Origin: Candidatus Aenigmatarchaeota archaeon
GTDB lineage: Archaea; Aenigmatarchaeota; Aenigmatarchaeia; Aenigmatarchaeales; JACQIB01
Length of the DNA stretch: 61,483 bases
Assembly (NCBI GenBank): GCA_046760225.1
Contig: JBHIDR010000001.1
Span: 1-61,483 of the forward strand
Direction of reading: 5' to 3'
A model generated the notes under the pieces. The model saw only the letters and a program-made list of their open reading frames with translations, was not told where the DNA came from and did no database searches. Below are positions 22,323-37,519 of this stretch, piece after piece. Both the position numbers and the translations under genes were made by a program. The first letter of the stretch is position 1. Every line of letters starts with the position of its first letter.

Positions 22323-25300
22323 ATGGTATATGAGATAGAAATAAAGAACGGAGTTCTGAGGATGAACTGCCTAGGAGGAATTTTCGGAGCGAACATAGAG
22401 GACTTTGATGTGATAATGGCAAGGGTAATTGACAGGCTCATAACAGACAGGAAGGTGCACACAATAATCCTTACAGAAACAAGGGACAGCGAATACGATA
22501 CAGAGCAGACAAAGATGCTTGTTGAGATTGCTGATGCAATAAGGGAGATACTCAAGGAAAGGAAACTGGTTTCTGTCAAGAGAATGGGTCCCAAGTGCGA
22601 CAAGTACCGTTCAGCATGGTATTCATGGCTCTATAACATGGCAGCATTCCAGATGAGGGGGGACCCAATAGGAGCATACGTGAGCCTGCTAAGGCAGATA
22701 AGGCACATAGAGATACTTGAGAAGAAAGGGGAAGACCCAGAATGCATGAGGGCATACCTGAACAACATACTTGTGCCGATAAGGGAGATACTTGAGGACA
22801 CAGCACTGATAAGCAAGGCAAAGCCCTTTCTTGCAGGTCACAAGATCGGGGACAGGTCAATATACAGGAGGTTCCTGCATCCCCTGACAAGGCCGAGCTT
22901 CATGTTCACCAAGTTCGTGACCAAGCCGCCCAAAGGGGATTTGCTGACAAAGTATAATATCGGCGATATACGCGTTGAGATCTACAGGGTTCCGGGAAAA
23001 GTAAGGCCTGTTTATTTTGTAACCCCGCCTGAGTTCAGGCTCACAGAACAGGAATACACTCTTCTTGATGATGCAAGGAGGGTGCTGGAAAAGAGAAGGC
23101 CGCATGAGCTGGAGATGAGGGACCAGGCAAGGATGAGGGAGCTGTTCAAGTCAATCAGCGAGGAGCTAATAAGAGATTTGGCTGATGTAAGGCGCTTCAA
23201 GCTCACAAGCAAGCAGATACACGACCTTGCAACAATCCTTACAAGGTATACAGCAGGCCTTGGGATAATAGAGCCCCTGCTTGCTGACCCAAGGATAGAG
23301 GATGTCAATCTCAACAGCCCATTGGGAATGCAGCCGCTTTATGTTTATCACCGAAATTATGATGAATGTGAGACAAACCTGGTTCCCACTATGATGGACG
23401 GTGATAGGCTGGCAACAAGGTTCAAGCTCCTGAGTGGAAGACCGCTTGATGAGGCAAATCCTGTTCTTGATACAGAGATAATTGTTCCAGGAGGGATTGC
23501 AAGAGTGGCTGCAATAGGGCCCAGGTTATCGCCCGAAGGCCTGGCATTCGCATTGAGAAAGCACAGGTTCAAGCCATGGACATTCCCGCTCTATCTTGAT
23601 GTTGGTTTTTTCAATCCCCTGTTTGGTGGGCTGCTGTGGTTCATGGCATCCTATGGGAGGACCCTGCTGGTTGCAGGCACCAGGGGCGCGGGAAAGACAT
23701 CACTTCTCGGGTCAATAATGCTACAGGTGATTCCCTACTACAGGATAATCACGGTTGAGGACAGTGTTGTAGGTGATAGTGAAATCGTAATTGAAAGGAA
23801 CGGCTCTATTGAGCGAACAACAGTTGGCGAGCTGATAGATGAGCAAATATCCAGATATGGTTCAACACCTAGCCTAAGTGGGCATGAGATTTTGGACAAG
23901 AACAAAGAAAACATAAGGGTCTTTTCCATGGGTTCAGATGGCAAAATCGGTCTGACAACTGTAGATAGTTTCATAAGGCACAAAGTGGATAAAAAGATTT
24001 TTGAAATAAGAACCAGGACAGGAAGGAAAATAAGGGTGACTACTGATCATTCGCTCTTCACGATCAGTCATGATGGCTCCATAGCGCCAGTGAGGGCAGG
24101 GGAGCTTTCTGTTGGGAAATATTTGGCTGTGCCGAGGGCACTCAATATATCTGGTAAGCAGAAAGACTGCATAAATCTAGTAAATTACCTGCATTTGTTA
24201 GACGGGCTTTATGTTTTGGGCGAACCTGTACATGATTTGATTAAGCAGCACTGGGGTGATATCAAAACCCTGGCAAAGGAGCAGAAATACTCGCGCAGCA
24301 TACCTTCTGCATGGAAGAGAAGGGGCATATTGCCCTGTGGTATTGCAGCAAAGCTCATGAAAAAGACGAGCATAAGGCCAGAAGGGGTCTGGATAAAGGG
24401 CTTGCGTCAATCCAAGCCAATTCCAGCTAAAATCTTCCTTGATAACGATTTTCTGGAGTTTGTAGGGATGTGGCTGGCTGATGGGTGTTACGATAGAAGC
24501 TCTGTAATAATATCAGCAACAGATACCGAGACAAGGAAAATGGTTCGTCGCGTTGCCAAAAAACTAGGCCTCAGAGCAAGGTTGCATAGTGACAAGTGGT
24601 CCCTTATGCTAAATTCCCTTGTCCTGAAAAGAATTATGATGGAAGTTTTGGAGCTCAAAGGCAATGCATATACAAAACGGATTCCAGGATGGGTTTACGG
24701 GCTGTCAAAATCCCAGAAAGCAGCTGTTCTGCGCGGGCTTTTCAGCGGGGATGGGCATGTCTCAAAGACCGAGCTGATAATAGCACTGTCATCTGAAAAA
24801 ATGATAAAGGATATCCAGACGCTTTTGCTCGGATTTGGTGTATTATGCAATGTCTCAAGGCTGAATGAGCGCGATAAGACCTATAGGTGCACAACTGGCA
24901 GTATAAGGTTCCTGAGGCCCTTTGCAGCTGAAATAGGCTTTCTGCAGCATGCAAAGAACTCTGCACTCAAATCCCTGTGCGCCAGAGTTTCGACCCATGA
25001 TACCCTGGATGTGGTGCCTCTTCCATTAGAGCTAAAGCAAAGGCTGCCTCCGCTTTTCGGAACAAGAAGGCAGGACTATATCACGCGAAACAACAATATC
25101 GGGAGGGAGAGGCTAAGGTATTTTGTACAAAAGACGCCAGTAGACGGTGGCGGGGCTATCATGCAGAGATTGAGCATGCTTGCTGATTCTGATTTATTCT
25201 GGGACAGGATTGTTGAAATAAAGTGCACAGAGGGTGGGGACTATGTTTATGATTTTTCAGTATTTGGGAAGGAGAACTTTGTATGCGAAAACATAATTGC

Positions 25301-26099
25301 CCACAACACTTTTGAGCTTCCTGTTGAGGCTCTGCGAAGGCTGGGCTACAATATCGAGAGGCTGAAGTCCCGCTCTGTTATCACAAGGGTGGAGCTCGAG
25401 CTTCCTGCAGAAGAAGTACTGAGAACAGCTCTTAGATTGGGAGACAGCTGCCTGTTCATTGGAGAAGTGAGGAGTGTTGAGGCAAAGGCACTGTACGAGG
25501 CAATGAGAATAGGTGCACTGGCAAATGTTGTTGCAGGAACAATACATGGTGAAAGCGCCTATGGTGTGTTTGACAGGGTGGTGAATGACCTGGGCGTGCC
25601 CCCGACATCATTCAAGGCAACTGACCTTGTTGTAATATGCAATAAGCTCAGGACAGCAGATGGCCTGAGGACATTCAGGAGAGTGACAGCTGTTACAGAA
25701 GTGAGGAAGCACTGGATGCATGATCCTGTGGAGGAGCATGGATTTTTGAATCTTTTGGAGTACAGCAGCAGGGAGGATAGCCTGAAGCCCACGGACACAC
25801 TGCTGAACGGGGAGAGCTTTGTTCTGAACCAGGTTGCAAAGAACGTGCCTGGCTGGGCAGGAAGATGGGATGCTGTCTGGGACAACATACTCCTGAGGGG
25901 CAAAATCCTGGAAACAATAAAGGACATAGCAAACCAGACTGGCAAGAGGGACCTGATGGAAGCAGAGACAACTGTTGCTGCAAACCAGATGTTCCATGCA
26001 CTAAGTGAGAAAAGTAGGCTGGAAGTCGGGGAAGTTGACAGCAAGTATGTTTATGATGAATGGCTGAAATGGTTCAAGGGAGTTGCCAAGAGAGCATAG
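22323..26099 (+). CDS. type II/IV secretion (FlaI/PilB/KlbA-VirB11-like) ATPase, interrupted by an intein
   Basis: Walker A is LVAGTRGAGKTS. The Asp box is RIITVED|..|TFELP. Walker B-like is LFIGEVRSVEA and the His box is VAGTIHGES. The extein total is about 743 aa. Confidence 0.9.
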   Translation: MVYEIEIKNGVLRMNCLGGIFGANIEDFDVIMARVIDRLITDRKVHTIILTETRDSEYDTEQTKMLVEIADAIREILKERKLVSVKRMGPKCDKYRSAWYSWLYNMAAFQMRGDPIGAYVSLLRQIRHIEILEKKGEDPECMRAYLNNILVPIREILEDTALISKAKPFLAGHKIGDRSIYRRFLHPLTRPSFMFTKFVTKPPKGDLLTKYNIGDIRVEIYRVPGKVRPVYFVTPPEFRLTEQEYTLLDDARRVLEKRRPHELEMRDQARMRELFKSISEELIRDLADVRRFKLTSKQIHDLATILTRYTAGLGIIEPLLADPRIEDVNLNSPLGMQPLYVYHRNYDECETNLVPTMMDGDRLATRFKLLSGRPLDEANPVLDTEIIVPGGIARVAAIGPRLSPEGLAFALRKHRFKPWTFPLYLDVGFFNPLFGGLLWFMASYGRTLLVAGTRGAGKTSLLGSIMLQVIPYYRIITVEDSVVGDSEIVIERNGSIERTTVGELIDEQISRYGSTPSLSGHEILDKNKENIRVFSMGSDGKIGLTTVDSFIRHKVDKKIFEIRTRTGRKIRVTTDHSLFTISHDGSIAPVRAGELSVGKYLAVPRALNISGKQKDCINLVNYLHLLDGLYVLGEPVHDLIKQHWGDIKTLAKEQKYSRSIPSAWKRRGILPCGIAAKLMKKTSIRPEGVWIKGLRQSKPIPAKIFLDNDFLEFVGMWLADGCYDRSSVIISATDTETRKMVRRVAKKLGLRARLHSDKWSLMLNSLVLKRIMMEVLELKGNAYTKRIPGWVYGLSKSQKAAVLRGLFSGDGHVSKTELIIALSSEKMIKDIQTLLLGFGVLCNVSRLNERDKTYRCTTGSIRFLRPFAAEIGFLQHAKNSALKSLCARVSTHDTLDVVPLPLELKQRLPPLFGTRRQDYITRNNNIGRERLRYFVQKTPVDGGGAIMQRLSMLADSDLFWDRIVEIKCTEGGDYVYDFSVFGKENFVCENIIAHNTFELPVEALRRLGYNIERLKSRSVITRVELELPAEEVLRTALRLGDSCLFIGEVRSVEAKALYEAMRIGALANVVAGTIHGESAYGVFDRVVNDLGVPPTSFKATDLVVICNKLRTADGLRTFRRVTAVTEVRKHWMHDPVEEHGFLNLLEYSSREDSLKPTDTLLNGESFVLNQVAKNVPGWAGRWDAVWDNILLRGKILETIKDIANQTGKRDLMEAETTVAANQMFHALSEKSRLEVGEVDSKYVYDEWLKWFKGVAKRA
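23763..25307 (+). mobile_element. 515-aa intein with LAGLIDADG homing-endonuclease domain
   Basis: It starts with Ser (SVVGDSEIVI). Block B is RVTTDHSLFT. The LAGLIDADG motifs are FVGMWLADGCY and LRGLFSGDGHV. Block F is YVYDFSV. It ends IIAHN, followed by Thr+1. It is in frame, and the flanking residues restore the Asp box ITVED-TFEL. Confidence 0.85.
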
Positions 26100-26108
26100 G
26101 TGCAGTAG

Positions 26109-28256
26109 ATGGCCCTTTTTAGGAAGAAGGACAAAAGGAAGAAACTGGAGGAAGCAAGGAGGAAGGCAGCGGCAGCCAAGAAAAAGGAACTGGAAAAAAT
26201 AATAAAGGTGGGCAGGCTGGAGCTTCCCAAGAAGAAGAAGCTCATCACAAAACCAACTGAATACAGGGAGTTCCTGCTTGAGATAAGGGAGCAGCCCAGG
26301 ACAATTCTGGAAAAAGCATGCGCTGTATCAGAAAAAATACTGCCAATAGAGCCTCCGCCAAGCATAGCAAAGGGAATGCAGGAGGACATAAAGGCAGGCT
26401 ATCTGGGGGTCACTCCCAAGGGAATATTCTCCTTGACAATACTTTCCTTTTTCATTCTCTTCATCCTCACTATGGTTTCAATGATCTACAATCTCGGGTT
26501 CTTTACAGTCATACTTTTCATAATAATGGTGGGTGCTGCATACTACATCTTCAACTACCCTGCTGCAAATGCAAAAAGGGTGACGCTGCGGATGTCAGCT
26601 GATTCGGTTCTTGCTATTCTTTACATGATAATCTACATGAGGACCAGCCCCAACCTTGAGGGCGCACTCAAGTTCACATCAGAAAACCTGAAAGGCCCGC
26701 TTGCATGGGACCTGAAGAAACTTCTCTGGGACATACACGTGGGCGTGTATGCAAGTGCTGACAGGGCAATTGCAACCTATATCGACAAGTGGAAGACAAA
26801 GAACGAGGAGTTCGCAGAAGCACTCAACCTGCTCAGGAGCTCTGCACTTGAGAAGGGGAGAAGGGAAAGGCTGTTTGACGAGACACTGAACGTGATACTG
26901 AACGGAACAAGGGAAAGGACAAAGCATTATGTGAGTGGCCTGAGGATGCCTGTTATGCTCATACATGCAATGGGGGTCCTTCTTCCTGTTATGGGGCTTG
27001 TGCTGTTCCCGATAATCGTCATATTCATGGCTGATGTGGTGAAGCCTGCAATGCTATTTTTGGGCTATAATTTCATACTCCCTGTTTTCCTCTGGGTGTT
27101 CATAGACTATATCCTGCGCGCAAGGCCGCCAACATTCTCCCAGCCCGATATCTCCCTTGCAAAGGATGTTCCACCATTGGGGAAAATAAGGATAGGCGAG
27201 AGGCTTGTCCCTATATGGGTATTCTCACTGATTGTGGTGCTTCCTATAGTCATGATGTCGCTTTTTGCAATTGGTCCGTGCATAAGCCCTGCAACAGCAG
27301 AGGCAGAGGCCCTCTGCACAGCAAGAAGCTTTGCAACAGTCAACATGTCTTTGCTCTTCACAATAGGCCTTGCACTCGGCATAGCACTGTACTGCATGCT
27401 GGACAGCCTGCAGAAGATGAAGATAAGGAATGATATTGAGAAAATAGAGGAGGAGTTCTCTGTTGCACTGTTCCAGCTGGGCAACCAGATTTCAGGCGGC
27501 ACCCCTATTGAGCTGGCAGTTGACAGGGCTGCTGTGAACCTCAAGGGCATGAAGATAGCCGAGCTTTTCAAGATGACGAGCAGCAACATGAGGAAGTTCG
27601 GCATGACATTTGAGCAGGCGCTTTTCGATGAAAAGGTTGGCGCGGTATGGTACTATCCTTCCAGATTGATAAGGTCAATAATGGTGACTGTGACCGAGGC
27701 AAGCAAGAAAGGAATGGCTGCTGCATCAAGCGCAATGATAACGGTGTCCAAATACCTGAAGGGAGTGCATGATGTCAAGGAGGAGGTGAGGGAAGTGCTG
27801 GGAGAGACAATCTCAAGCATGAAGTTCCTTTCAATGTTCCTTACACCTCTTGTTGCAGGCGTCACGATCACAATGGCAGTTATAATAATAACCATCCTCT
27901 CGAACCTGGGTGCACAGATTTCCAAGCTTGTTGCAACAGGAGGAGAGGGACTGAACTCCTTCCAGTACAGCTTTCTTTTCGGACCGTCAATGATGGGAGG
28001 AAAGATGCCCATCGGTCCGGCAGAGTTCCAGATAATAGTGGGAATATACATGATTGAGACAATAATCCTGCTCTCTGTTTTCATAAACAGGATAGAGTTT
28101 GGCGAGGATGCCGTTGGAATGAGGTCGACCCTGGGCAAGGCACTAATTACAGGCGTTTTCATCTATGTGATCAGCTGGTTCGTAACTTATCTCATGTTCG
28201 GGCCGGCAATAACTGATTTGCTGACACCAGCAACACTGCAACTGGGAGGCGGATGA
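26109..28256 (+). CDS. polytopic membrane platform protein (FlaJ/TadC/PilC-like by context)
   Basis: The 715-aa ORF lies 10 nt after the ATPase. It has a Lys-rich cytoplasmic N-terminus, then multiple TM helices in two blocks separated by a soluble domain, as in T2SSF-type platforms. Confidence 0.6.
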   Translation: MALFRKKDKRKKLEEARRKAAAAKKKELEKIIKVGRLELPKKKKLITKPTEYREFLLEIREQPRTILEKACAVSEKILPIEPPPSIAKGMQEDIKAGYLGVTPKGIFSLTILSFFILFILTMVSMIYNLGFFTVILFIIMVGAAYYIFNYPAANAKRVTLRMSADSVLAILYMIIYMRTSPNLEGALKFTSENLKGPLAWDLKKLLWDIHVGVYASADRAIATYIDKWKTKNEEFAEALNLLRSSALEKGRRERLFDETLNVILNGTRERTKHYVSGLRMPVMLIHAMGVLLPVMGLVLFPIIVIFMADVVKPAMLFLGYNFILPVFLWVFIDYILRARPPTFSQPDISLAKDVPPLGKIRIGERLVPIWVFSLIVVLPIVMMSLFAIGPCISPATAEAEALCTARSFATVNMSLLFTIGLALGIALYCMLDSLQKMKIRNDIEKIEEEFSVALFQLGNQISGGTPIELAVDRAAVNLKGMKIAELFKMTSSNMRKFGMTFEQALFDEKVGAVWYYPSRLIRSIMVTVTEASKKGMAAASSAMITVSKYLKGVHDVKEEVREVLGETISSMKFLSMFLTPLVAGVTITMAVIIITILSNLGAQISKLVATGGEGLNSFQYSFLFGPSMMGGKMPIGPAEFQIIVGIYMIETIILLSVFINRIEFGEDAVGMRSTLGKALITGVFIYVISWFVTYLMFGPAITDLLTPATLQLGGG

Positions 28257-28257
28257 T

Positions 28258-28797
28258 ATGAAGGGGATTTCCAAGGAGGTGACAATGAACATCTTCTGGA
28301 TAATCTTTGCAATAGTTGCTGTTATGGGTATCTTTATCATGGGCCAGTTCATATTCGGTCTTCTGCAGCCCATTGACATAGGGGCAGAAGATTCTGGAAT
28401 CAGCTTTGACGGCGAGAAGGGCACAGTATGCCTTGATGCAGATCCAAGAAAAGCAGACTGCAGGAGATGTGCGACAACACCATTGCTAGGAACCTGCCAG
28501 GGAGAGCAGTATGTCAACATAGAGGAAAAGTTCGGCGCTGTTGTGGCTGACATAGTAAAGGTCTGTACAATTGCGCGGTTCTCAGTGGGCAAGACAGAAA
28601 TAAAGTATAGGGTACTGTATGATGACGACAAGAAAAGGGAAAAGACAAAAGAGGCATACCCCGGAAGGGAAGTGTGCCATACATTTGATTTTGAAACAGG
28701 CGTAATACTAAGGGAAGTTTCAGCAGTCACAGGTGTGGGTGCAATGGACAGGTTTACTGTGGAGTTCACTGTTTACCAGGAAGAAAAGGTTGATTAG
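28258..28797 (+). CDS. pilin-like protein (class III signal-peptide-type N-terminus)
   Basis: It starts MKGISKEVTMNIFWIIFAIVAVMGIFIMG and continues into a Cys-containing soluble domain. It starts 2 nt after the platform gene. Confidence 0.6.
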   Translation: MKGISKEVTMNIFWIIFAIVAVMGIFIMGQFIFGLLQPIDIGAEDSGISFDGEKGTVCLDADPRKADCRRCATTPLLGTCQGEQYVNIEEKFGAVVADIVKVCTIARFSVGKTEIKYRVLYDDDKKREKTKEAYPGREVCHTFDFETGVILREVSAVTGVGAMDRFTVEFTVYQEEKVD

Positions 28798-28798
28798 T

Positions 28799-28972
28799 AT
28801 GGAAGAAAAATCAATAATGATGGTGATATACCTGCTCTTTGGCATGGCCATACTGCTGGTCGTGATAGGCCTGCTCGCATACACAGGCCAGCTGAAGTTC
28901 CCGCAACTGGACTTCTGGGGCATGCTGGGCAGCTTTTTTGATTTGCTTGAAGGAGCACTTCCTCCAATTTAG
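28799..28972 (+). CDS. mini pilin-like/membrane protein (57 aa)
   Basis: MEEKSIMMVIYLLFGMAILLVVIGLLAYTG. The ATG lies 2 nt after the previous stop. Confidence 0.5.
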   Translation: MEEKSIMMVIYLLFGMAILLVVIGLLAYTGQLKFPQLDFWGMLGSFFDLLEGALPPI

Positions 28973-28980
28973 GTGTGGTC

Positions 28981-29163
28981 ATGAAGGTAACAAAAGAATC
29001 CATATGGCTTGTTGTCACTGTCATAATAGTGGTTGTGATATTCCTGGTGCTCATATTTGTGCTGTCAGGCTCAACACCAGGCGACATATTCAATGCAATA
29101 CAGAACGTGTTCACTGTTGTGGCCCTGTTCATGATAGCGCAACTACAAGCAATACTGAGGTGA
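28981..29163 (+). CDS. mini pilin-like/membrane protein
   Basis: MKVTKESIWLVVTVIIVVVIFLVLIFVLSG. AGGTG lies upstream, and an alternative GTG start is at 28975. Confidence 0.5.
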   Translation: MKVTKESIWLVVTVIIVVVIFLVLIFVLSGSTPGDIFNAIQNVFTVVALFMIAQLQAILR

Positions 29164-29167
29164 AAAA

Positions 29168-29356
29168 ATGCCAGTACCTGTTTCAGAGGAGTCGATGTGG
29201 TTCCTGATTGTACTGATAATAGGGCTTGTAATACTGGGAATATTTGTTGCATTTGTTGTTATGCAGGGACCAGAGAGCTTTATCTGGCAGTATACGCGCA
29301 GCCTTTTCTATGACGTGATTTACTTCTTCTTCGGACCAAGGATAGTGGAAGTATGA
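29168..29356 (+). CDS. mini pilin-like/membrane protein
   Basis: MPVPVSEESMWFLIVLIIGLVILGIFVAFVVMQG resembles the previous gene (..ESIW/ESMW plus a helix). Confidence 0.5.
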   Translation: MPVPVSEESMWFLIVLIIGLVILGIFVAFVVMQGPESFIWQYTRSLFYDVIYFFFGPRIVEV

Positions 29357-29398: not shown

Positions 29399-31258
29399 AT
29401 GAAGGGGATTGCTGTCCGGACTCTTGTGATGGTTGTTGGCCTCATAATAATATCCCTACTTCTTATCAGCCTGCTTGTTGCAGCTGGTGATCTGGCTGTG
29501 ATACTTCCTGAACTGTTCCTGGGATGGATACCTGAGATGAAGCCCCAGCTTGGTTATTCATCATTTGGGGGGGTTGAGATAGTTGACATTGCTGGTGATG
29601 GTCAGCCAATGACAGCCACACAAGTGGGGTGCGCGCTGGCAAGGACAGTAAGGGATGACTTTGCAGTCTACGGAGAGTCTGAGTCTGCTGCAAGGGGAAA
29701 GACCCTTGAGCCACTGACAGACGAGCTCAGGCTAATTGATGCAAAGAGATTCAGCATAGGCTTGGACAGGGTTCATTACAAGGACTTTATGCATTACTGG
29801 GAGTCAAAGAACCTCAACAGCACGCAAAAACAGAACCTCTTGGAAGGATGCGACCTAAAAGATGAAGTTACTGCTCTTCCGAATAAAGGAAATGGCTGCC
29901 CTGTTCACCTTGATGAGGCCTGTGTTTCCCTGATGATGTCAAAAATGGAGGTAGGCGAAAGGGATTTCTGCACAGGAGATAAAACCCTTATAGCAGGCGA
30001 CGGAAGGCCCTATAAGTTCGGGAACAATGAGTGCGAATACAAACCATTGGCTGAGATTCCTGTATGGCTACAGATCAGTGGTATTACTGAAGAAGAAATC
30101 CCAGGTGAGTCAACCATATCCCCTGACTGGAGACAATCATGTGCAGTCTGCAAAGGAGGTGACAGGATAAAGGGATGGATTGCTGGTGGACCAGACTATG
30201 ACAAGTACGTAAAGGACAATGAATATACAGTCAGCCTTTACAAGGTAAAGGACATGCAAACCCAGTTCTTCCCACCAGGATACGAGACATGCCCGGTTTA
30301 TCAGTATTCTTCTGGAACCCCACAAGTCCCCTATCCAAGATACGAAAAGATCAGGGACGAGGCATGCACTCCTGACTACATGTATACGGTTTACTGGAGT
30401 ACCAAAGGAAGATATTATCAGATAGAGTTCCCAAGGATACCCAAGGGCGAGTATCTAGGCAAAAAGGATGTAAATACGCTTATACTGAATGAACTTGCCC
30501 ATCCTTTCATGTACAATGATTTTGCTGCTAGAAAGTCAACAGCAGGAGTATTATACCCTGAACTCAGGATGGTAAGGAACATAACCTTCACACCTGAAAA
30601 AGACGTTCTGATAAATGACTTTGTTGACAGGTTTCTGAGGGATCTTAATTCTGGATACATGGCTGATGGTGTTGATTGGACACCAGAGTACAATGACTGC
30701 TTGGGAGAGGACTGCTACACGCTCTTCCCGAAATGGGTAATGTATCATGAGGCCTGGAAGAAGAAGAGCCCAGAAGGAGGAACAGCTGGGTGGTTTATAG
30801 ATCCTATAACAACTGCCATTACTTACGGGATAGAGTGGGCTTCTGATAAGATTCTAGGGGATGCAAACAAAGAAGTGTTTCACGAGATATACAACTGTGG
30901 AAAGGAGTTCAAGAAGAAGAACCCGGACTACAAGACAATACAGGTGCACACAAACCTGATTCCGAATGAGGACTACCTCAACTCAACCAAGAGTTACAAT
31001 ATTATCCTGACCTATTGGGCCAAGGTGAAGTATGGAAGGCAGAAGGACACGGGAAGCGAGGGGGGCTGCAGGCTTGGTGTGCCAGGTGAGTGCAGGTACT
31101 GTGTAAAGAGCTGCACTGACCACACATACAGGTGGTCTTACAACTGCATTGGCGGCACAGGCTTCACCCATGACAGGACAAATACAGTATACTTCGACCA
31201 TTCCCTGATAATTGTTGACACGGAAAGGATGGGTGCATTTGCAGGTGTTGGGCCATGA
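29399..31258 (+). CDS. large Cys-rich secreted protein with pilin-type N-terminus
   Basis: The 619-aa ORF starts MKGIAVRTLVMVVGLIIISLLLISLLVAAG. It has more than 25 Cys spread over the soluble part. Confidence 0.65.
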   Translation: MKGIAVRTLVMVVGLIIISLLLISLLVAAGDLAVILPELFLGWIPEMKPQLGYSSFGGVEIVDIAGDGQPMTATQVGCALARTVRDDFAVYGESESAARGKTLEPLTDELRLIDAKRFSIGLDRVHYKDFMHYWESKNLNSTQKQNLLEGCDLKDEVTALPNKGNGCPVHLDEACVSLMMSKMEVGERDFCTGDKTLIAGDGRPYKFGNNECEYKPLAEIPVWLQISGITEEEIPGESTISPDWRQSCAVCKGGDRIKGWIAGGPDYDKYVKDNEYTVSLYKVKDMQTQFFPPGYETCPVYQYSSGTPQVPYPRYEKIRDEACTPDYMYTVYWSTKGRYYQIEFPRIPKGEYLGKKDVNTLILNELAHPFMYNDFAARKSTAGVLYPELRMVRNITFTPEKDVLINDFVDRFLRDLNSGYMADGVDWTPEYNDCLGEDCYTLFPKWVMYHEAWKKKSPEGGTAGWFIDPITTAITYGIEWASDKILGDANKEVFHEIYNCGKEFKKKNPDYKTIQVHTNLIPNEDYLNSTKSYNIILTYWAKVKYGRQKDTGSEGGCRLGVPGECRYCVKSCTDHTYRWSYNCIGGTGFTHDRTNTVYFDHSLIIVDTERMGAFAGVGP

Positions 31259-31419
31259 AAGGGATTGAAGCTTCCTTGCAGATGGTGGTTTTCGCAGTAA
31301 TAGTAATAATCATTGTTGCTGTTGCAATATACATTGCTTACCAGGCTTTTATAGGAGGGCTGGAAATAGCAACACCAGGATTTTTGCATGACATACTCAG
31401 TGTTTTCGGAGGGGGATGA
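31255..31419 (+). CDS. mini-pilin ORF (54 aa), not in ORF track
   Basis: MKGIEASLQMVVFAVIVIIIVAVAIYIAYQAFIGG... Its ATG overlaps the previous TGA (ATGA). Confidence 0.55.
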   Translation: MKGIEASLQMVVFAVIVIIIVAVAIYIAYQAFIGGLEIATPGFLHDILSVFGGG

Positions 31420-31514
31420 AAATGAAAGGTGTGACAGAACAGACAATAAGTTTCCTGATAATGATAATACTTGCTGCCCTGATAGCATTCGTGATATGGA
31501 GGGTAATAAGCTAG
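31416..31514 (+). CDS. mini-pilin ORF (32 aa), not in ORF track
   Basis: MKMKGVTEQTISFLIMIILAALIAFVIWRVIS. Its ATG overlaps the previous stop (ATGA). Confidence 0.45.
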   Translation: MKMKGVTEQTISFLIMIILAALIAFVIWRVIS

Positions 31515-31524
31515 GTGATCAGTA

Positions 31525-31683
31525 TTGAAGAAAATACCAATATGGTTTTTGCTGGTCATAGTGATTGCAGTTGCACTGCTGGTCATCTGGCTTGTTGTTT
31601 CAGTAGCCCTGTCCGAAACAGCAGGCGGACCAGCACAGTGGCTTGTTGATTTTTTCAACAAGCTGCTCAGAAGAGGTGTATAA
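31525..31683 (+). CDS. mini membrane ORF (52 aa, TTG start), not in ORF track
   Basis: (L)KKIPIWFLLVIVIAVALLVIWLVVSVALSETAGGPAQWLVDFFNKLLRRGV. The start codon is uncertain. Confidence 0.35.
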   Translation: MKKIPIWFLLVIVIAVALLVIWLVVSVALSETAGGPAQWLVDFFNKLLRRGV

Positions 31684-31685
31684 AC

Positions 31686-31841
31686 ATGAAAGGGGTCGAG
31701 TTGCCAATCAAGATGATAATAATAATCATAGTGCTTCTCTTGGTGGCAATAATATCTGTAATAGTAATTTCAATGGTCTATGGTGTTTCTATCCCGCTGC
31801 TTGACCAGCTGAAGATGCTCATAGGAGGTGCAAAAGCATGA
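31686..31841 (+). CDS. mini-pilin ORF (51 aa), not in ORF track
   Basis: MKGVELPIKMIIIIIVLLLVAIISVIVISMV... Its stop overlaps the next ATG (ATGA at 31838). Confidence 0.55.
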   Translation: MKGVELPIKMIIIIIVLLLVAIISVIVISMVYGVSIPLLDQLKMLIGGAKA

Positions 31842-32170
31842 GGGGCGCGATAAGCCTGCCTGTTATGATAGTGATCCTGATAGTGATAGGTGTGATTGTG
31901 GTGATTGTGAGCTATTTCTTGCTCGCTCCATTGCTCAGTGTTGGCGGAGGGCAGACTGCTGCTGCATCGCTTTCCAGCTGCTGCGCGAACTTCGTGCTTG
32001 GTGGCTATTGTTCAAAGGACGAGGCAGGGAACTTTGTTGGTTTTGAGGACATAGAATGCTCAGTGGACAAGAGCCTGGACCAGACTGGAAAGATGAAGAT
32101 AACACGGCTTGCTGGTGAGGCAGGATTTTCAGCAAGCTCGGACGGCGTGCAGAAAGCATGCTGCAGGTAA
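31838..32170 (+). CDS. Cys-rich pilin-like protein
   Basis: It starts MRGAISLPVMIVILIVIGVIVVIVSYF, followed by a small domain with SSCCANF..YCS..ECS..ACC. Confidence 0.6.
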   Translation: MRGAISLPVMIVILIVIGVIVVIVSYFLLAPLLSVGGGQTAAASLSSCCANFVLGGYCSKDEAGNFVGFEDIECSVDKSLDQTGKMKITRLAGEAGFSASSDGVQKACCR

Positions 32171-32201
32171 AACTTTTTAACCAGCATTTACAACTATTGG
32201 T

Positions 32202-34472
32202 ATGCGCGGCACTTCCTATGTTGTGATGCTCGGTGTTTCTGTGCTAATAGCAGTGCTGACCCTGATTCTGATATATGTTGTTTTCCCGCGCTCGCACTGC
32301 GATGAGCTTGCACAGCTGAGTGCCCAGGAGATCAAGAGGGCAATAGAATGCGCTGCAAATTATGAGGACTACAGGGACCCGATAACAGGACGGCTCTGCA
32401 ATGCTGCTTCTGTGAAGCTATGCCAGGAGGACACGTTCAGTGTCTATGGTGTTGGTTATGTACAGGCATATCTCGGGCTCATGGTACCGGAATACATGGT
32501 CTACTACAAGCAGTTCCCCAAGAAGCGCGTTCATAGTATCTTTACACCAGGAATAGAGATGGGAGAAAGGTTTAGCATGAGCTTTTCAGAGTCCTATCCA
32601 TTTGAGAGGGCATACCTGGGCCAGAGGCCATGGGACATTAGGCCCACGCTCACGCAGTTCAAGGAGTTCTTCAAGACAAAGTACCTTGAGCAACCCTGCA
32701 CAAGTGAGAACGCGCTCTGCTTCAACATAAGGGGCAGGGAGGAGGTAGTGAAGATAGATGCACCCAGTGTGAAGAATGTAAGGATTGCAAGGCAGGGCAT
32801 GGGAATTGCAGAAACCAATCCAAGGTTCTATATTGTTGCGCCCTGCTATGCAAAAGTGAAGTTCGTGAGAGGGGACAGCATATTCCTTTTGCCAGAGGAT
32901 ATTCAGGAAGGTGAAGAAGAACAAGAAGACATAATTTATGGTTATGTTGACAGGTGCGGTGCAGGGGATGCTTCAAACTACTGCTATACTGATGAGGGCA
33001 CGCTTTCTGCGCTCGTGTCAGCCTATGCTGCTGAAACAACATGCTATGCACTTGACTATATCACAGACATACTTTCCTTTGGCACCAAGGCAGGTGTAAA
33101 AGCAGGTGCAAAGGCAGGAGTCAAGACAGCTGGCAAGAAAGTAGGAAGGGAGGTAAGTGAAAAAGCTGCAGAAGAGATGAGCGAAAGGATAGCAAGGGAG
33201 GTCATGCAGGAAGCTGAAGAACATTTTGCAAAGACAGGGCAGAGAATGACAGGAAAACAGATGCAAAGGTTAGCTGCGAAAAAGGGTGCACAAGTATTCG
33301 GAAGGGAGATAGGAGAAGAAGCAGCTGAGGAAATAGCTACAGATGTTTCATCAAGGCTTGCAACCAGGTATGCGTGGAAGAGCTCTGCAAAAGGCAAGCT
33401 TCTTGCAAGGGCCAGTGCAAGAAGAGCAGGAAAGATGTTCGGCATACCAACTAGCGGTGCTGAACTCACAAGGATGCTTGCGCCCTTGCCCTGTGTTGAC
33501 ATAGACTACTGCAGGGGTGCTGGTTCATGCGCAGAAGCAGCTGCACTGTGGCCGGGCTGGCCGTTCAAGCCTTTGACAGAATCAAGCATGCCGAAATGCA
33601 GGAGCTATGAGAGCGCGAGCGCAGTGCTCATGCCATGCTGCCTGAAGTATGAATACGGTGCTGAGAAGAACATCTCGAGGATAACATGCGAGAATCCTTC
33701 TGACCTGGTTGACCTGCTCAAGCCTGACATGGGGCTGGAGCCAAAGGACAATGTCACGCTCAAGAACCTGGCAAACTACCTGAGAATGAGCGAGGACAGG
33801 ATTGATGTTGTGTGCTCGCTTGTAAAAGGAAATTCAACAAAGGAATGCATAGACGCCCTGGAAGTGCGGGAGCACCATCTCTGGGACACATGCAGCAGCT
33901 TTGACAGTCATACATATGATTTTGAAAGGGTAAGGGATGAGACAACGCTTACTGTCTCGTTCGGGGGCTTTGGCAGTGACTGCCAGACAGAAGTTGCAAC
34001 AGAGATTTCAAAGGACAAGAAAGAATGGGAGACATTAAACGAAACAACAATACAGGGATATCCTGAGGTAGACAGGATAGTATTGAAGGGAGAATACAGC
34101 TTCAGGTACCTGAGAATAAGGGACACAGAAGAGAGGTGCCATTTGGACTGGAGCTTTGTTGCACTCGGCTCTGAAAGAGAGGGCAAGATAGAGGCAGTAA
34201 AGGGGGTTGATTACAACCTCGCGCCCTTCAGGTATGTATACTTCATAGTGCCTCCTGACTATTCCACGCAGGCGTCTGTGCTCTGCGAGGAAATCGAGCA
34301 CTGTGACTCTATTGCAGCATGGGTGGCAACTGAGGGAAGCTGGCTGAAGTATTATGCTGAAGCTGGAAAAGAGGACTTCATAATAACAGGCGGGGACGAG
34401 ATAGGAATATACACAACAGACTACAGCAAGGTCAGGTTCGGTGAGGCTGCGCCAGAGGAGGGAGTAGAATGA
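32202..34472 (+). CDS. giant Cys-rich secreted protein with pilin-type N-terminus
   Basis: The 756-aa ORF starts MRGTSYVVMLGVSVLIAVLTLILIYVV. It has an internal Ala/Lys-rich helical insert (GTKAGVKAGAKAGVKTAGKKVGRE...). Confidence 0.65.
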   Translation: MRGTSYVVMLGVSVLIAVLTLILIYVVFPRSHCDELAQLSAQEIKRAIECAANYEDYRDPITGRLCNAASVKLCQEDTFSVYGVGYVQAYLGLMVPEYMVYYKQFPKKRVHSIFTPGIEMGERFSMSFSESYPFERAYLGQRPWDIRPTLTQFKEFFKTKYLEQPCTSENALCFNIRGREEVVKIDAPSVKNVRIARQGMGIAETNPRFYIVAPCYAKVKFVRGDSIFLLPEDIQEGEEEQEDIIYGYVDRCGAGDASNYCYTDEGTLSALVSAYAAETTCYALDYITDILSFGTKAGVKAGAKAGVKTAGKKVGREVSEKAAEEMSERIAREVMQEAEEHFAKTGQRMTGKQMQRLAAKKGAQVFGREIGEEAAEEIATDVSSRLATRYAWKSSAKGKLLARASARRAGKMFGIPTSGAELTRMLAPLPCVDIDYCRGAGSCAEAAALWPGWPFKPLTESSMPKCRSYESASAVLMPCCLKYEYGAEKNISRITCENPSDLVDLLKPDMGLEPKDNVTLKNLANYLRMSEDRIDVVCSLVKGNSTKECIDALEVREHHLWDTCSSFDSHTYDFERVRDETTLTVSFGGFGSDCQTEVATEISKDKKEWETLNETTIQGYPEVDRIVLKGEYSFRYLRIRDTEERCHLDWSFVALGSEREGKIEAVKGVDYNLAPFRYVYFIVPPDYSTQASVLCEEIEHCDSIAAWVATEGSWLKYYAEAGKEDFIITGGDEIGIYTTDYSKVRFGEAAPEEGVE

Positions 34473-34924
34473 AAGGAGGCACGCAGCTCTATGACATAAT
34501 CGTGCTCATAGGCATAGTAATACTCATATTTGTCCTGATTTACTGGTCAATGACATATGGTGCGCAGATTGTTGCGGAAATGCTCTTTTCTGCACCAGAG
34601 ACAGTGCAGGACTCCCTGGCCAGCTTTATGGGTGCGGGCTGCGCTCCAGGCAACATGACAGTTGTGTTTTCAATAACACCCACTCCTTTGACAGCTTTTG
34701 TGGACAATGACACAATAAATGTTCTTCCACCTGAATACGGCTATTATTATGGAAGGGAGGTTGAAAGAGGAGGCTATATAAGGTTTGACCCGCCTGAGCC
34801 CATTGCTTATGTCAAGTGCAAGGGTGTCAGTGTTGTGACAGGTTCTGTTGACTTTGAGCCAAGAAAACACACAGCCTTTGTTGTGAACAAGACACTCAAT
34901 GAAATCGGTGTAGGTGTTAAGTAA
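34469..34924 (+). CDS. pilin-like protein
   Basis: MKGGTQLYDIIVLIGIVILIFVLIYW, with an ATGA overlap to the upstream gene. Confidence 0.6.
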   Translation: MKGGTQLYDIIVLIGIVILIFVLIYWSMTYGAQIVAEMLFSAPETVQDSLASFMGAGCAPGNMTVVFSITPTPLTAFVDNDTINVLPPEYGYYYGREVERGGYIRFDPPEPIAYVKCKGVSVVTGSVDFEPRKHTAFVVNKTLNEIGVGVK

Positions 34925-35334
34925 TGGAGATAGCTGAATTCCTGCTGAAAATGATGACTGTTGTAATACTGATACTGGGAATACTGGGAATGGTGATGCA
35001 GTCTGCTGCATATCAGGGCAATATCATCATATATGATGCTGACAGGCTCGCGCTGAACCTTGGGCATGCGCTGCTCTCTGCGCCCTGCCTGACAGAAGAA
35101 GTGGACGGAGAGCCAAGGAGAGGGATCTTCGAGGTTGGAAAACTGGATTCAGTAAAAGACCTTTGCATGGATGTGGATGCAGTATACAACATAAAGGTAG
35201 CAGGAGGGGGCAAGAGCTGGGAGTTCGGAAAGACAGTGACCAAAGGAGAATCCAGAAAATTCCCTGTTGCACTAAAGTTTTCTGATACCAGAATAGTTGC
35301 AGGTGAGATTGTTGTTAAGGTCCAGGCTATCTAA
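34924..35334 (+). CDS. pilin-like protein
   Basis: MEIAEFLLKMMTVVILILGILGMVM, with a TAATG overlap to the upstream gene. Confidence 0.55.
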   Translation: MEIAEFLLKMMTVVILILGILGMVMQSAAYQGNIIIYDADRLALNLGHALLSAPCLTEEVDGEPRRGIFEVGKLDSVKDLCMDVDAVYNIKVAGGGKSWEFGKTVTKGESRKFPVALKFSDTRIVAGEIVVKVQAI

Positions 35335-35350
35335 GAAAAGGAAAGGGGGG

Positions 35351-35806
35351 GTGTGGTACCTCTCTGACATAATCACATTCATATCATCGCTTTTCGGAAC
35401 ACTCACAATGCTCTTCATAGCAGCACTTGTTATTTTCATAATGCATGTGAATGTTTATGTATATGTGAACGGGGTGCTACTGTACGATGTACCCAACACT
35501 GACAATATCTTAATGACCTATATGGAAACAACCAACCAGGGATACAGGATGAGGGACCTCCTGACATATGCTGTTTACATGGAGAACATGAGCTTCAGAA
35601 TAGGTGATACTGAAGTTGATTTACAGAGAACAAGCCCGATAATAATGAACACCCTGACTAAAAAGCCCTATACCTTAACATTAGAGACAGACCTATCTAG
35701 CTATGAGCTTGCAAAAGCAGGGGTGCCTGGAGAACATGCTGTTGCCAAGCATACTATTGTACAGGCTGGTGAGAAAAGGGCGCTGCTGAGACTATGGAGC
35801 GGATGA
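35351..35806 (+). CDS. membrane-anchored protein of pilus locus
   Basis: A GTG start after GAAAGGGGGG gives VWYLSDIITFISSLFGTLTMLFIAALVIFI. The track ORF start at 35297 overlaps the previous gene. Confidence 0.5.
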   Translation: MWYLSDIITFISSLFGTLTMLFIAALVIFIMHVNVYVYVNGVLLYDVPNTDNILMTYMETTNQGYRMRDLLTYAVYMENMSFRIGDTEVDLQRTSPIIMNTLTKKPYTLTLETDLSSYELAKAGVPGEHAVAKHTIVQAGEKRALLRLWSG

Positions 35807-35807
35807 T

Positions 35808-36794
35808 ATGAGAAAGATGAAAGGCGTAGGACCAGCATTCGTGCTAGGATTAGTGATGATCATAATAGTCACTGTAATATTTGTTCTGGACAAGACAGTT
35901 GAGTATGATGAAAGGGCGACTATTTCCAGCAGTGCACGCTATGCTTATGATACACTGAGTGCTTCAGAAGAGCTGAAGAGGACAACTGATTCTGCTGTTG
36001 GTTTTGCTGCTGTTCAGCTGACCTCGCTTGGAGCAGAAGGAGGTGGTTTCATCAAGTGGAGCAGGGAATCGCCTACAATGGAGGACCTGGTTGAGAAGTA
36101 TACGGATGAGCTGGAGAGCAGTGTGAGCGAAGTAAAGGAAATAGAGGATTTCAGGGGCATGACAGTGGGATGGAGGACAGCAAACATAGAGCTGGAATAC
36201 AGTGACAAGAACATCACGCTCACAGGAAGCAATGGGTTCGTGATAATGAGGCATGAGAACCCCCAGGTCATGGTGCAGGCAGGCAACAATTTCAAAAGAA
36301 CAGCACAATCATCTTATTTCAGGCTGCTGCAGATAGGAAGGAACCTGTTTGAGAACCAGAGATGGAAAGTGGACGAGGATGTGATAAGCCTTGCTGTGGG
36401 TGATATGGGGGACGAGTGCAAGGAAGTGACAAACACAACATATGAGCCTGTTGTGGAGGACTTCCTGAAGTATTCGTTCCAGTGCGGTCTTGAGGGCTAT
36501 GATGGCCTGGCCTCACTTGACAGCTATACTGAAGATGAGGCTGACCTTCTGATATATAATATAGCAGATGAACTGGGTTTCTACCTAAGGGATGAATATG
36601 GCTTTGATTTCAATATCACAGCTGAGAAGGATGTTCTTGAAAGGACAGACAGTGTCCTGGTAAAGCTAAGGATAGATGTCATAATAGAGGATGAGGATTC
36701 CCTTACAATCTATGAGGAGGGATTTGATAGCCTGAGGCTGGAATTCTCAACAAACTACCAGTTTGATGTGCCCAAGGAGGCAAGCCCAGAATGA
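35808..36794 (+). CDS. pilin-signal secreted protein (328 aa)
   Basis: MRKMKGVGPAFVLGLVMIIIVTVIFVL. The start lies 2 nt after the previous stop. Confidence 0.6.
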   Translation: MRKMKGVGPAFVLGLVMIIIVTVIFVLDKTVEYDERATISSSARYAYDTLSASEELKRTTDSAVGFAAVQLTSLGAEGGGFIKWSRESPTMEDLVEKYTDELESSVSEVKEIEDFRGMTVGWRTANIELEYSDKNITLTGSNGFVIMRHENPQVMVQAGNNFKRTAQSSYFRLLQIGRNLFENQRWKVDEDVISLAVGDMGDECKEVTNTTYEPVVEDFLKYSFQCGLEGYDGLASLDSYTEDEADLLIYNIADELGFYLRDEYGFDFNITAEKDVLERTDSVLVKLRIDVIIEDEDSLTIYEEGFDSLRLEFSTNYQFDVPKEASPE

Positions 36795-36805
36795 ATATTT
36801 ATATA
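36794..36805 (+). promoter_or_regulatory. TATA-box promoter of first small pilin gene
   Basis: AATATTTATATA lies about 30 nt upstream of the ATG at 36835. The same element recurs at 37149. Confidence 0.5.
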
Positions 36806-36834
36806 GCGAGAAAGACAAATATAGGTCGATTGAA

Positions 36835-37149
36835 ATGAGGAAAGGAATAGAGCTCCCAATAAATGTCCTAGTCATACTAGTGATAGCAGTGATAGTGCTG
36901 ATTACCCTCATATTGCTTGTTATCAGTCCTCCAAGCTTGAACTGTGATACAGCAAAGGCAGGTGGCTGCCTTAAGATGATTCAGGACTGCGAAGCCGACC
37001 CATCTGCCATACCAGTTGACGATTTCAACTACCAGGGCAATGTGATAGATGACCTGCAGGATGTTTGCACGCACTGCTATGGCAAGGTCACAACAGACGA
37101 GTGCAGGGAGTTATGTGGCTGCCAAATCACTCCAGCGGGTGCAGAATAA
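36835..37149 (+). CDS. small Cys-rich pilin (candidate major subunit)
   Basis: It starts MRKGIELPINVLVILVIAVIVLITLILLVI, followed by a 70-aa domain with 8 Cys. It has its own TATA box. Confidence 0.65.
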   Translation: MRKGIELPINVLVILVIAVIVLITLILLVISPPSLNCDTAKAGGCLKMIQDCEADPSAIPVDDFNYQGNVIDDLQDVCTHCYGKVTTDECRELCGCQITPAGAE

Positions 37150-37160
37150 ATATTTATATA
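37149..37160 (+). promoter_or_regulatory. TATA-box promoter of second small pilin gene
   Basis: AATATTTATATA is followed by the AAGGAG SD and the ATG at 37193. The 19-nt block cagaatRaatatttatata is shared with 36787. Confidence 0.5.
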
Positions 37161-37192
37161 TACGGCTTCAAATACAGACTAAGGAGATAGCT

Positions 37193-37519
37193 ATGAAAGG
37201 CATAGAACTTCCAGTGAACGTGTTAGTGATCATAGCGGTGGCTGTTCTGGTCATGCTCGGCCTGGTTGCAATATACTTTGCAAATCCAGGTGATGTTCTT
37301 GCTAAGTCAGCAGCAACAAACGAAGCATGCGGTGAGCTGCAGCAGAAAGGGTGCAGGGAAGGCAACCTCAACAACATTCCATTCGGCTATGGTGCCTATG
37401 ACAGCTTGTATGACTATTGTGTAGACACGTGCAAAGACTATGTAGATGTGGACAAGTGCTGCAGAGCCATTATTTGTGGTGGCGCATGTCCAGGACTTCC
37501 GAAACCAGAGCGAAAATAA
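37193..37519 (+). CDS. small Cys-rich pilin (candidate major subunit), paralog
   Basis: It starts MKGIELPVNVLVIIAVAVLVMLGLVAIYF, followed by a Cys-rich domain. The track ORF N-terminus (37049) overlaps the previous gene. Confidence 0.65.
   Translation: MKGIELPVNVLVIIAVAVLVMLGLVAIYFANPGDVLAKSAATNEACGELQQKGCREGNLNNIPFGYGAYDSLYDYCVDTCKDYVDVDKCCRAIICGGACPGLPKPERK

Follow-up and report, generated by a model that had tools for sequence, protein, structure and literature searches.

The DNA analysed here is a contig of 61,483 nucleotides from a Candidatus Aenigmatarchaeota archaeon; the whole 61-kb contig is referred to as the window, and our subject is a block of type IV pilus (T4P)-like genes on its plus strand. 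Listing and translation of open reading frames (ORFs) resulted in a single tightly packed block of 19 genes between positions 22323 and 37519, comprising a secretion/assembly ATPase gene (22323-26099), a gene for a polytopic membrane platform protein of 715 amino acids (26109-28256), and 17 further genes, g03 to g19, with products of 32 to 756 amino acids (28258-37519). Independent gene calls from two Logan assemblies with an identical locus returned the same genes, which bears out an initial annotation, made from the sequence alone, that had listed an ATPase, a 715-residue polytopic protein and 17 consecutive genes on the same strand. As also stated there, most junctions are overlapping or close: 11 out of 17 overlap or are separated by at most 4 nt, and the remaining gaps measure 8, 10, 31, 40, 42 and 43 nt, the wider ones being located 5' of g07, g13, g18 and g19. 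An Alba gene (37554-37838, from the gene call) lies at the end of the block. Since the window contains an archaeal 16S rRNA gene and a putative TFB gene, the latter recognized by eye from the translation, it is of archaeal origin. Judged by sequence identity, the closest relatives of the locus are found in Aenigmatarchaeota, a DPANN lineage (82% for the ATPase, 75% for the platform protein).

The ATPase gene encodes 1258 amino acids, of which 743 remain after splicing. Residues 481 to 995 (23763-25307, plus strand) form an intein of 515 amino acids with a LAGLIDADG homing-endonuclease domain. In Pfam, the 1258-residue ORF matched Intein_splicing (3.6e-25) and LAGLIDADG_3 (8.7e-16), and the T2SSE signal was weak and split. 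The element has the ends of an intein, namely Ser1, the block B motif TTDH, a C-terminal His-Asn and Thr as the +1 residue, and its best match in the PDB was PI-PkoII (3.3e-21). It splits the Asp box between IITVED and TFELP; its removal restores IITVED/TFELPVEALR, and the predicted junction exactly equals the sequence of the intein-free orthologs, IITVEDTFELPVEALR. The same site is occupied by an intein in the orthologs P0107 and P0113. In a further ortholog, P0120, an intein appears to be located at another site. Because of its position in the Asp box, the motor would work only after protein splicing. The intein also matters for annotation, since it doubles the normal length of the gene and leaves Pfam with only a weak view of the T2SSE domain.

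The 743-residue extein displays a Walker A motif (GTRGAGKT), an Asp box (IITVEDTFE), a Walker B motif (DSCLFIGEVR) and a His-box (TIH). Among PDB sequences, afGspE of Archaeoglobus (2OAP, 1.7e-31, 112 bits), FlaI (4II7, 3.9e-20, 75 bits) and CpaF (6e-18, 68 bits) were matched best, whereas PilT and VirB11 merely reached 1e-4 to 1e-6 (VirB11 about 3e-5, 26 bits). The NCBIfam models gave 130 bits for FlaI, 107 for TadA, 63 for BasE and 53 for VirB11, all of them below the equivalog cut-offs (550 for FlaI and 250 for VirB11). In a tblastn search of a plasmid collection rich in conjugation systems, CpaF and T4P-type ATPases of haloarchaea, the latter with 38-43% identity in the core, ranked above VirB11 as the best matches; the Haloterrigena neighbourhood provided nothing informative. 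Compared with FlaI and GspE, the protein is longer at its N-terminus by about 215-225 residues and is extended at its C-terminus as well. By these sequence comparisons the spliced ATPase is a member of the FlaI/GspE/TadA clade and not VirB11-like. The FlaI/PilB/KlbA-type assignment of the initial annotation thus stands in the form of a FlaI/GspE/CpaF-like ATPase, while the intein had not been mentioned there.

Grouping of the ATPase with VirB11 had been named beforehand as the outcome that would speak against a pilus, and generic labels of homologs at JGI ("VirB11/archaellum biosynthesis ATPase" or "FlaI") could indeed be taken to indicate a type IV secretion system of the conjugative or VirB11 type, or else an archaellum. 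However, VirB11 and TrbB models and structures scored far below FlaI, GspE and CpaF, and even among plasmids the nearest sequences were T4P-type ATPases and CpaF. No VirB4, coupling protein (VirD4) or relaxase was found among the proteins of the locus and its flanks, and neither Pfam nor NCBIfam detected a FlaH/KaiC, FlaF/FlaG or archaellin family in the same set; the FlaI score likewise stays far from the value of 550 that would mark an archaellum motor. For practical purposes both alternatives are refuted, and we give them next to no likelihood.

The platform gene is the only one of its kind in the locus and directly follows the ATPase gene. The window copy was aligned with 27 orthologs sharing 52-75% identity with it; of these 28 sequences, 26 matched Pfam T2SSF (PF00482; best 1.4e-10), and several of the orthologs are labelled TadB by JGI. 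Through these orthologs the 715-residue protein is assigned by sequence to the TadB/TadC/FlaJ-type (T2SSF) platform proteins as a divergent member.

All 17 proteins encoded downstream of the platform gene have exactly one hydrophobic segment, which is located at the extreme N-terminus (best 19-residue Kyte-Doolittle mean 2.4-3.8), and no further transmembrane segment. In 12 of them, a short basic leader of 3-11 residues ending in [KR]G directly precedes this helix of about 20 residues. With a slash at the presumptive cleavage site, these N-termini read MKG/IS (g03), MKG/IA (g07), MKG/IE (g08), MKMKG/VT (g09), MKG/VE (g11), MRG/AI (g12), MRG/TS (g13), MKG/GT (g14), KRKG/GV at the end of an 11-residue leader (g16, counted among the 12), MRKMKG/VG (g17), MRKG/IE (g18) and MKG/IE (g19). 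Using a rule-based approximation of FlaFind that asks for a short basic leader, [KRDE][GA] at positions -2/-1 and a hydrophobic helix of about 20 residues, the same 12 out of 17 qualified as having class III-like signal peptides (SPIII). Hence, of the roughly 17 class III genes initially proposed, 12 have the motif and 5 are without it. The six frames of the window offer 1011 ATG starts of ORFs with 28 amino acids or more, and all of these were checked for a stricter pattern, M[KRM]0-3[KR]G followed by a hydrophobic 17-mer. It was found at 13 starts representing 11 genes, all on the plus strand within 28258-37519, and nowhere else in the window; this confinement to the block argues that it did not arise by chance.

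The [KR]G sites agree with cleavage contexts known from archaea, for which experimental support exists in the case of KG/IS in UpsB and KG/QV or KG/QI in Epd pilins (PMC4371748). Leaders of 3 residues are processed by PibD, but not by FlaK/ArlK (PMC10117864). The +1 residue in our set is I, V, A, T or G. An alignment revealed the N-terminus G-[IVA]-[ES]-L-P-[IV] to be common to g11, g12, g18 and g19. Pilins of one filament usually share their N-terminus.

Behind the N-terminal helix, Cys accounts for 3.1% of the residues in the 17 proteins and for 0.69% in 38 other proteins of the window, and the number of Cys residues is even in every one of the 17. The description of the soluble domains as Cys-rich is thereby confirmed. 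Elsewhere in the window (55490-56737, plus strand), a gene for a PCYCGC-motif protein (Pfam, 1.6e-22) adjoins a gene for a DsbD/CcdA-type membrane protein. This pair may constitute an extracytoplasmic thiol-disulfide system, which would fit the abundant even-numbered Cys residues of the pilin-like ectodomains.

The array, throughout on the plus strand, begins with g03 (28258-28797; 179 amino acids, MKG/ISKE, an N-terminal helix and 6 Cys), whose KG/IS site has the context of Sulfolobus UpsB (PMC4371748). It is followed by g04, g05 and g06 (28799-29356), single-helix membrane proteins of 57, 60 and 62 amino acids without [KR]G; comparable trios of helix-only genes for 55-75 residues occur in the related loci L005, L008, L016 and L049. 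The large protein g07 (29399-31258; 619 amino acids, MKG/IAVR, 18 Cys) had no relatives by sequence in Pfam, NCBIfam or the PDB and no tblastn match in 84 related loci. Next come the head-less, helix-only products of g08 (54 amino acids), g09 (32 amino acids), g10 (52 amino acids, TTG start, no KG) and g11 (51 amino acids, MKG/VELP), encoded at 31255-31841. In size and architecture g08 to g11 would resemble head-less pilins of the Flp/EpdE type (10.64898/2026.04.22.720090). The 110-residue g12 (31838-32170) starts with MRG/AISLP and contains 6 Cys.

The largest product is g13 (32202-34472; 756 amino acids), in which MRG/TS and the helix are followed by a Cys-rich N-terminal domain, a variable charged helical insert and a C-terminal beta-sandwich similar to discoidin and CBM32. 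The -1 Gly, the helix and many Cys residues are kept among its 17 homologs. The AlphaFold2 model of g13 had a mean pLDDT (predicted local distance difference test) of 68, with values mostly between 75 and 92 for the C-terminal residues 560-750. With this domain, Foldseek retrieved neuropilin b1b2 (2e-6), discoidin II and several CBM32 modules at TM-scores of 0.40-0.54 normalized on the target. Galactose-binding-like folds of this kind are typical of adhesins. Based on the model, g13 is a putative adhesin and a candidate for glycan binding. It is followed by g14 (151 amino acids), g15 (136 amino acids, no KG), g16 (164 amino acids, leader ending in KRKG/GVW, TTG start) and g17 (328 amino acids), located at 34469-36794. 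From their position after g13 and their architecture we infer a minor-pilin-like module. No relatives of g17 were detected by the PDB sequence search.

The two last genes of the block, g18 (104 amino acids, MRKG/IELPIN) and g19 (108 amino acids, MKG/IELPVN), are paralogs with 8 Cys each (36835-37519). A/T-rich TATA-like elements, identified by eye, precede the ATPase gene, g07 (within the 42-nt gap), g18 and g19. Those of g18 and g19 are identical copies of ATATTTATATA at 36795-36805 and 37150-37162, about 35 nt 5' of the respective gene, which suggests separate strong promoters for both genes inside the operon. The g19 family, to which g18 belongs as well, comprises 151 representative clusters at E<=1e-3 with proteins of about 100-135 amino acids. 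In an alignment of 45 members, K2 is invariant, G3 (at least 90%), L6 and P7 are near-invariant and six Cys residues are conserved, while the ectodomain varies. Such conservation of K2 and G3 speaks for a processing site under selection and against a plain membrane anchor. The AlphaFold2 model of g19 (pLDDT 93) consists of a helix at residues 8-30, a break at Pro-Gly-Asp, a second helix at 34-52 and a compact helical head; as modelled, it is a pilin-like lollipop of a long N-terminal helix and a small head. The Foldseek search with this model returned no PDB fold, and neither a PDB sequence match nor a Pfam family was found, the 45 family members included.

Homologs of the spliced ATPase number more than 3400. 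The top 120 share 56-82% identity, those without an intein (62-82%) match over the full length, and the names they carry are Aenigmatarchaeota, Micrarchaeota, Nanoarchaeota and the like. With each species represented by one genome, a scan recovered the ATPase in at least 569 genomes, the best 80 of which belong to Aenigmat-, Nano-, Woese-, Nanohalo- and Undinarchaeota; a few genomes labelled Methanosarcinales and one protein homolog labelled Heimdallarchaeaceae may be mis-binned. The pair of ATPase and platform protein is conserved at 45-82% identity across DPANN phyla. The picture differs for the downstream genes. Searching the 84 related loci with the 17 proteins by tblastn gave 4 hits each for g13, g15 and g19, 3 for g18, 1 for g16 and none for the others, i.e. 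the proteins are nearly undetectable by BLAST even where the ATPase is 60-70% identical.

Because tblastn gave almost nothing, conservation of the array was judged by its architecture in 40 related loci whose sequence continues for 5 kb or more after the platform gene, the region upstream of the ATPase gene serving as control. Genes with a single N-terminal helix made up 50% downstream of the platform gene and 10% upstream of the ATPase gene, and [KR]G genes 20% and 1.6%, respectively. Same-strand runs of at least six were observed downstream in 20 out of 40 loci, and upstream runs never exceeded three. The order of the tail is repeated in L087 (GCA_016198755.1), where a large g13-like gene precedes genes for about 116, 150, 130, 160, 340, 100 and 120 amino acids and Alba, and L016 and L058 contain runs of genes for about 145-190 residues after a large protein. 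Synteny of the ATPase gene across related lineages, a comparison proposed by the initial annotation, is in line with its reading: the platform gene lies directly downstream in 70 out of 84 related loci, and similar hypervariable, Cys-rich helix-first arrays often follow.

In many related genomes the ATPase/platform pair was observed without an adjacent pilin array, among them L003 and L004 (ERZ27254836 and ERZ27254759), L010, L012, L017 and others; in L003, a reverse-strand gene for 358 amino acids separates the two. The pilin sets of such genomes must be encoded elsewhere or be absent, and the same remark has been made for nanoarchaea (Makarova 2016, PMC4858521).

Synteny also extends upstream of the ATPase gene. 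Two divergent genes for coiled-coil proteins of 221/234 and 109 amino acids (21253-22252, minus strand) lie next to the ATPase gene in 40-41 out of 84 related loci by tblastn, with similar size and orientation in L003 and L005; their Pfam matches are confined to generic coiled-coil families. Their products are probable cytoplasmic accessory proteins of the machine. Further upstream, four genes for small polytopic membrane proteins of 192, 161, 165/168 and 178 amino acids (17202-19376, plus strand) are syntenic with the ATPase gene: those of 161, 165/168 and 178 residues were found in 12-13 of the 84 loci and the 192-residue one in 4, and in the Nanoarchaeota loci L005 and L006 proteins of 192, 162, 170 and 180 residues are encoded in the same order. 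No significant Pfam family was assigned to the four. Over the 17 downstream proteins, the platform protein and the conserved upstream genes together, Pfam and NCBIfam gave generic coiled-coil matches and a weak LNT_N match, and no informative family. Going by their synteny, they are possibly part of the system.

For the prepilin peptidase, the window and the ATPase-flanking DNA of 86 related loci were searched for a GxGD motif combined with at least four transmembrane segments. The sole candidate proved to be false and no peptidase. All four small membrane proteins encoded upstream were considered as divergent peptidases; those of 161 and 168 residues were rejected, as they contain no Asp at all. 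Pfam searches with 10 polytopic ORFs of representative loci yielded Bestrophin-like and M50 matches only and no A24 peptidase. The statement of the initial annotation that prepilin peptidase, FlaH/KaiC-like and archaellin genes are missing therefore holds for the locus and for the whole window. In archaea, the gene for PibD is often located at a distance from the pilus genes, and for this reason its absence here is not evidence against processing of the products. Class III processing of the locus proteins is thus inferred from their N-termini. Tad-like clusters of Nanohaloarchaeota and Undinarchaeota have been reported to include an A24 peptidase (PMC9563170).

Taken together, we consider the locus likely to specify the machine by which an Aenigmatarchaeota-like DPANN archaeon assembles a type IV filament (archaeal T4P/Tad-like), with subunit roles as proposed below. 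Three of the features that define archaeal T4P-like systems were found, namely an ATPase with the motifs of the FlaI/PilB/TadA clade, a T2SSF platform recognized by orthology and class III-type subunits. Several observations weigh against this reading. No A24 peptidase was found in the 61-kb contig or around the ATPase genes of the 86 related loci, and a census in 2016 found none in two nanoarchaeal genomes (PMC4858521). The window copy of the platform protein taken alone fails the Pfam thresholds and had no NCBIfam or PDB (profile) match either. The [KR]G motif is lacking in g04 (28799), g05 (28981), g06 (29168), g10 (31525) and g15 (34924). Not one of the 17 proteins matches a Pfam or NCBIfam family, and no known pilin, class III family, solved pilin or archaellin matches them or the 45 members of the g19 family. 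The predicted head of g19 is helical instead of the usual pilin beta-sheet and has no counterpart among PDB folds. Finally, g18 and g19 are candidate major subunits by assignment of major and minor roles on our part, and the filament, the processing and the expression of the products are predictions from sequence. The absence of recognizable motifs from the soluble domains had been noted initially and is largely right, the discoidin/CBM32-type match of the g13 C-terminus having come from structure comparison.

Some of these points could also be explained if the 17 proteins were ordinary signal-anchored (type II) envelope proteins that are inserted by Sec/YidC and never processed as class III substrates, their position merely reflecting co-regulation. 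The missing peptidase, the lack of homology to known pilins and the five members without [KR]G, four of which encode only 52-62 amino acids and thus barely more than a helix, would be expected in that case, and a leader of 3 residues is the shortest known to be accepted by PibD and too short for FlaK/ArlK (PMC10117864). Against it stand the restriction of the [KR]G motif to this block of the window, the invariant K2 and the G3 of at least 90% in a diverse alignment of 45 sequences despite a variable ectodomain, the enrichment of helix-first and KG genes downstream of the platform gene relative to the upstream control in 40 loci of several DPANN phyla, and the overlapping start and stop codons, which indicate one operon with the machine. 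We regard plain signal anchors as very unlikely.

Loci of this kind have been described in outline. DPANN islands with FlaI, TadC and many unrecognizable signal-bearing "pilins" were reported in 2019 (Makarova, Wolf and Koonin; PMC6393860, Fig. 2A), and Tad-like clusters without annotatable pilins are known from Undinarchaeota and Nanohaloarchaeota (PMC9563170). Going by the descriptions, our locus resembles these dark-matter islands in its FlaI-like ATPase, its TadC-like platform, its many unannotatable helix- or signal-bearing genes, pilins too divergent to be recognized by homology, and its DPANN host. Beyond the published outlines, and new at the level of this lineage, are the intein of the ATPase, the division of the array into 12 genes with and 5 without KG, the MKG.ELP family with 8 Cys and a helical head, the discoidin/CBM32-like adhesin candidate and the extended synteny of upstream coiled-coil and membrane-protein genes. 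The initial annotation took the number of pilin-like genes to exceed by far what would suit a simple adhesive pilus, yet such a number is not exceptional in view of the 11 Epd genes, of system 2 and of the DPANN islands (PMC6393860; 10.64898/2026.04.22.720090).

System 2, or clade 2, of euryarchaeal T4P includes, for example, the Haloferax PilB/PilC loci (PMC4858521; Sivabalasarma and Albers 2026, 10.64898/2026.04.22.720090). By its described features, which are compared here in place of an ATPase tree, it shares with our locus a terminally extended ATPase, a single platform protein, a mixture of SPIII and non-SPIII pilin-like proteins and large adhesins, and in both the best solved relative of the ATPase is the Archaeoglobus GspE (2OAP). 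In contrast to system 2, Pfam detected no PilA-type (Pilin_N) pilin, the arCOG02911 pilin not having been searched for, and neither MinD nor KaiC is encoded in the locus.

The Epd system of Methanococcus maripaludis and the Tad-Flp systems resemble the locus in having a multi-gene operon (11 genes in Epd), several minor pilins, cleavage contexts of the KG/Q type in Epd and very short head-less pilins, which there form the major pilin, and their TadA/CpaF ATPases are related to ours (68 bits). Head-less pilins as well as an SPIII galactose-binding protein are known from Epd. In contrast, Epd and Tad possess two platform genes (TadB and TadC, EpdJ and EpdK) and a dedicated peptidase (EppA/TadV), whereas our locus has one platform gene and no peptidase, and its proteins, whose motif is G/[IV]-E-L-P, have neither the +1 Gln nor the +5 Glu of EppA substrates. 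The locus therefore does not fall into bacterial Tad or archaeal Epd (system 1). With Sulfolobus Ups and Aap it shares a KG/IS site identical to that of UpsB and leaders within the 3-residue tolerance of PibD; in Ups and Aap the peptidase is encoded elsewhere in the genome, as is proposed here. Ups and Aap have only two pilins each with beta-rich heads, and Cys-rich helical heads or an array of tiny helix-only genes, as found here, do not occur in them.

In the mechanism that we propose, an unlinked PibD-type (A24) peptidase would cut the precursors after Gly, and the hexameric ATPase, docked on the platform, would extract the mature subunits from the membrane, which could then polymerise via their N-terminal helices to a thin surface filament. 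The shaft would consist of g18 and g19, possibly also of the head-less g08, g09 and g11. A priming or tip complex of g13 with g14 to g17, perhaps including g07, would bind glycans present on a partner cell or a surface. Accessory functions in assembly or anchoring may fall to the mini-proteins that lack KG, to both coiled-coil proteins and to the quartet of small membrane proteins, and disulfide-rich ectodomains would stabilise the exposed parts. The machine is probably used for attachment to other cells. Every test that could be run supported the core of the initial reading, i.e. a T4P-like machine with many prepilin-like genes and probable attachment of an episymbiont.

Instead of a long adhesive pilus, the same machine might build a short structure in the envelope, of the pseudopilus or bindosome kind, that takes up host DNA or nutrients or serves secretion, similar to competence pseudopili, the type II secretion system or the Sulfolobus bindosome. 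The ATPase/platform pair is unusually conserved (45-82%) and near-universal in DPANN, as would suit an essential function more than an adhesin that is optional; in many related loci no pilin array adjoins the pair, many of the subunits are tiny or lack a head, and import of DNA or nutrients through DPANN pili has been proposed (PMC9563170). However, no substrate-binding protein, ABC transporter, ComEC-like channel or nuclease is encoded in the locus, the bindosome ATPase BasE scored 63 bits in NCBIfam against 130 for FlaI, and the discoidin/CBM32-like g13 points to external glycan binding. In addition, other DPANN cells have been observed to bear thin filaments compatible with pili (PMC11329633); the papers on DPANN attachment organelles studied by electron cryotomography name no genes. 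We therefore consider a short uptake or secretion structure to be unlikely and prefer the filament-assembling machine.

A number of further features were observed in the window. The 16S rRNA gene is in pieces (42935-46858, minus strand): Rfam model positions 4-828 and 890-1284 were matched, and the 3' end was not found. Its long insertions, which look like multiple rRNA introns, contain ORFs at 45260-45826 (a LAGLIDADG endonuclease), 44256-45068 and 43388-44140. In low-GC stretches, a free-standing LAGLIDADG-type ORF was matched by Pfam at 59152-59904 (minus strand), and LAGLIDADG-type ORFs were recognized by eye at 40545-41781 (minus strand), where the 243-residue ORF 41050-41781 had no Pfam match at E<=0.001. 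The contig thus seems unusually rich in homing endonucleases. Between the small membrane-protein genes and the coiled-coil pair lie two adjacent nucleotidyltransferase-like genes (19423-21256, plus strand; Polbeta/NTP_transf_2 match on the first), which are absent at the matching position in L005. They resemble the DPANN-specific MNT-HEPN family (NEQ050), which Makarova et al. (2019) listed as an enigmatic gene in a housekeeping context. Upstream of the membrane-protein genes, three consecutive genes encode extremely K/E-rich predicted coiled-coil proteins of 626, 322 and 878 amino acids (11678-17171, plus strand), for which neither a family match nor a homolog in the 84 related loci was found.

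DPANN archaea depend on physical contact with their hosts, and the literature calls their pilins "not annotatable" (PMC9563170, PMC4858521). On a bolder view, which we put forward tentatively and with considerable doubt, the ATPase, the platform protein, the coiled-coil pair and the small membrane proteins would be a near-universal, DPANN-wide core combined with hypervariable pilin and adhesin cassettes, building an organelle for host contact (attachment and/or uptake), and the MKG.ELP shaft with 8 Cys would represent a new all-helical, disulfide-locked pilin, perhaps processed by a non-A24 enzyme. The present analysis provides a parts list for one lineage, consisting of the signature MKG-x-E-L-P-[IV]-N of a candidate major pilin family of about 150 clusters, a candidate glycan-binding adhesin and conserved accessory genes beyond the evident operon. 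Signature and parts could serve for pilin mining in DPANN genomes, for antibody design and as targets in electron cryotomography and proteomics, and they allow testing whether the conserved ATPase is the motor of host attachment.

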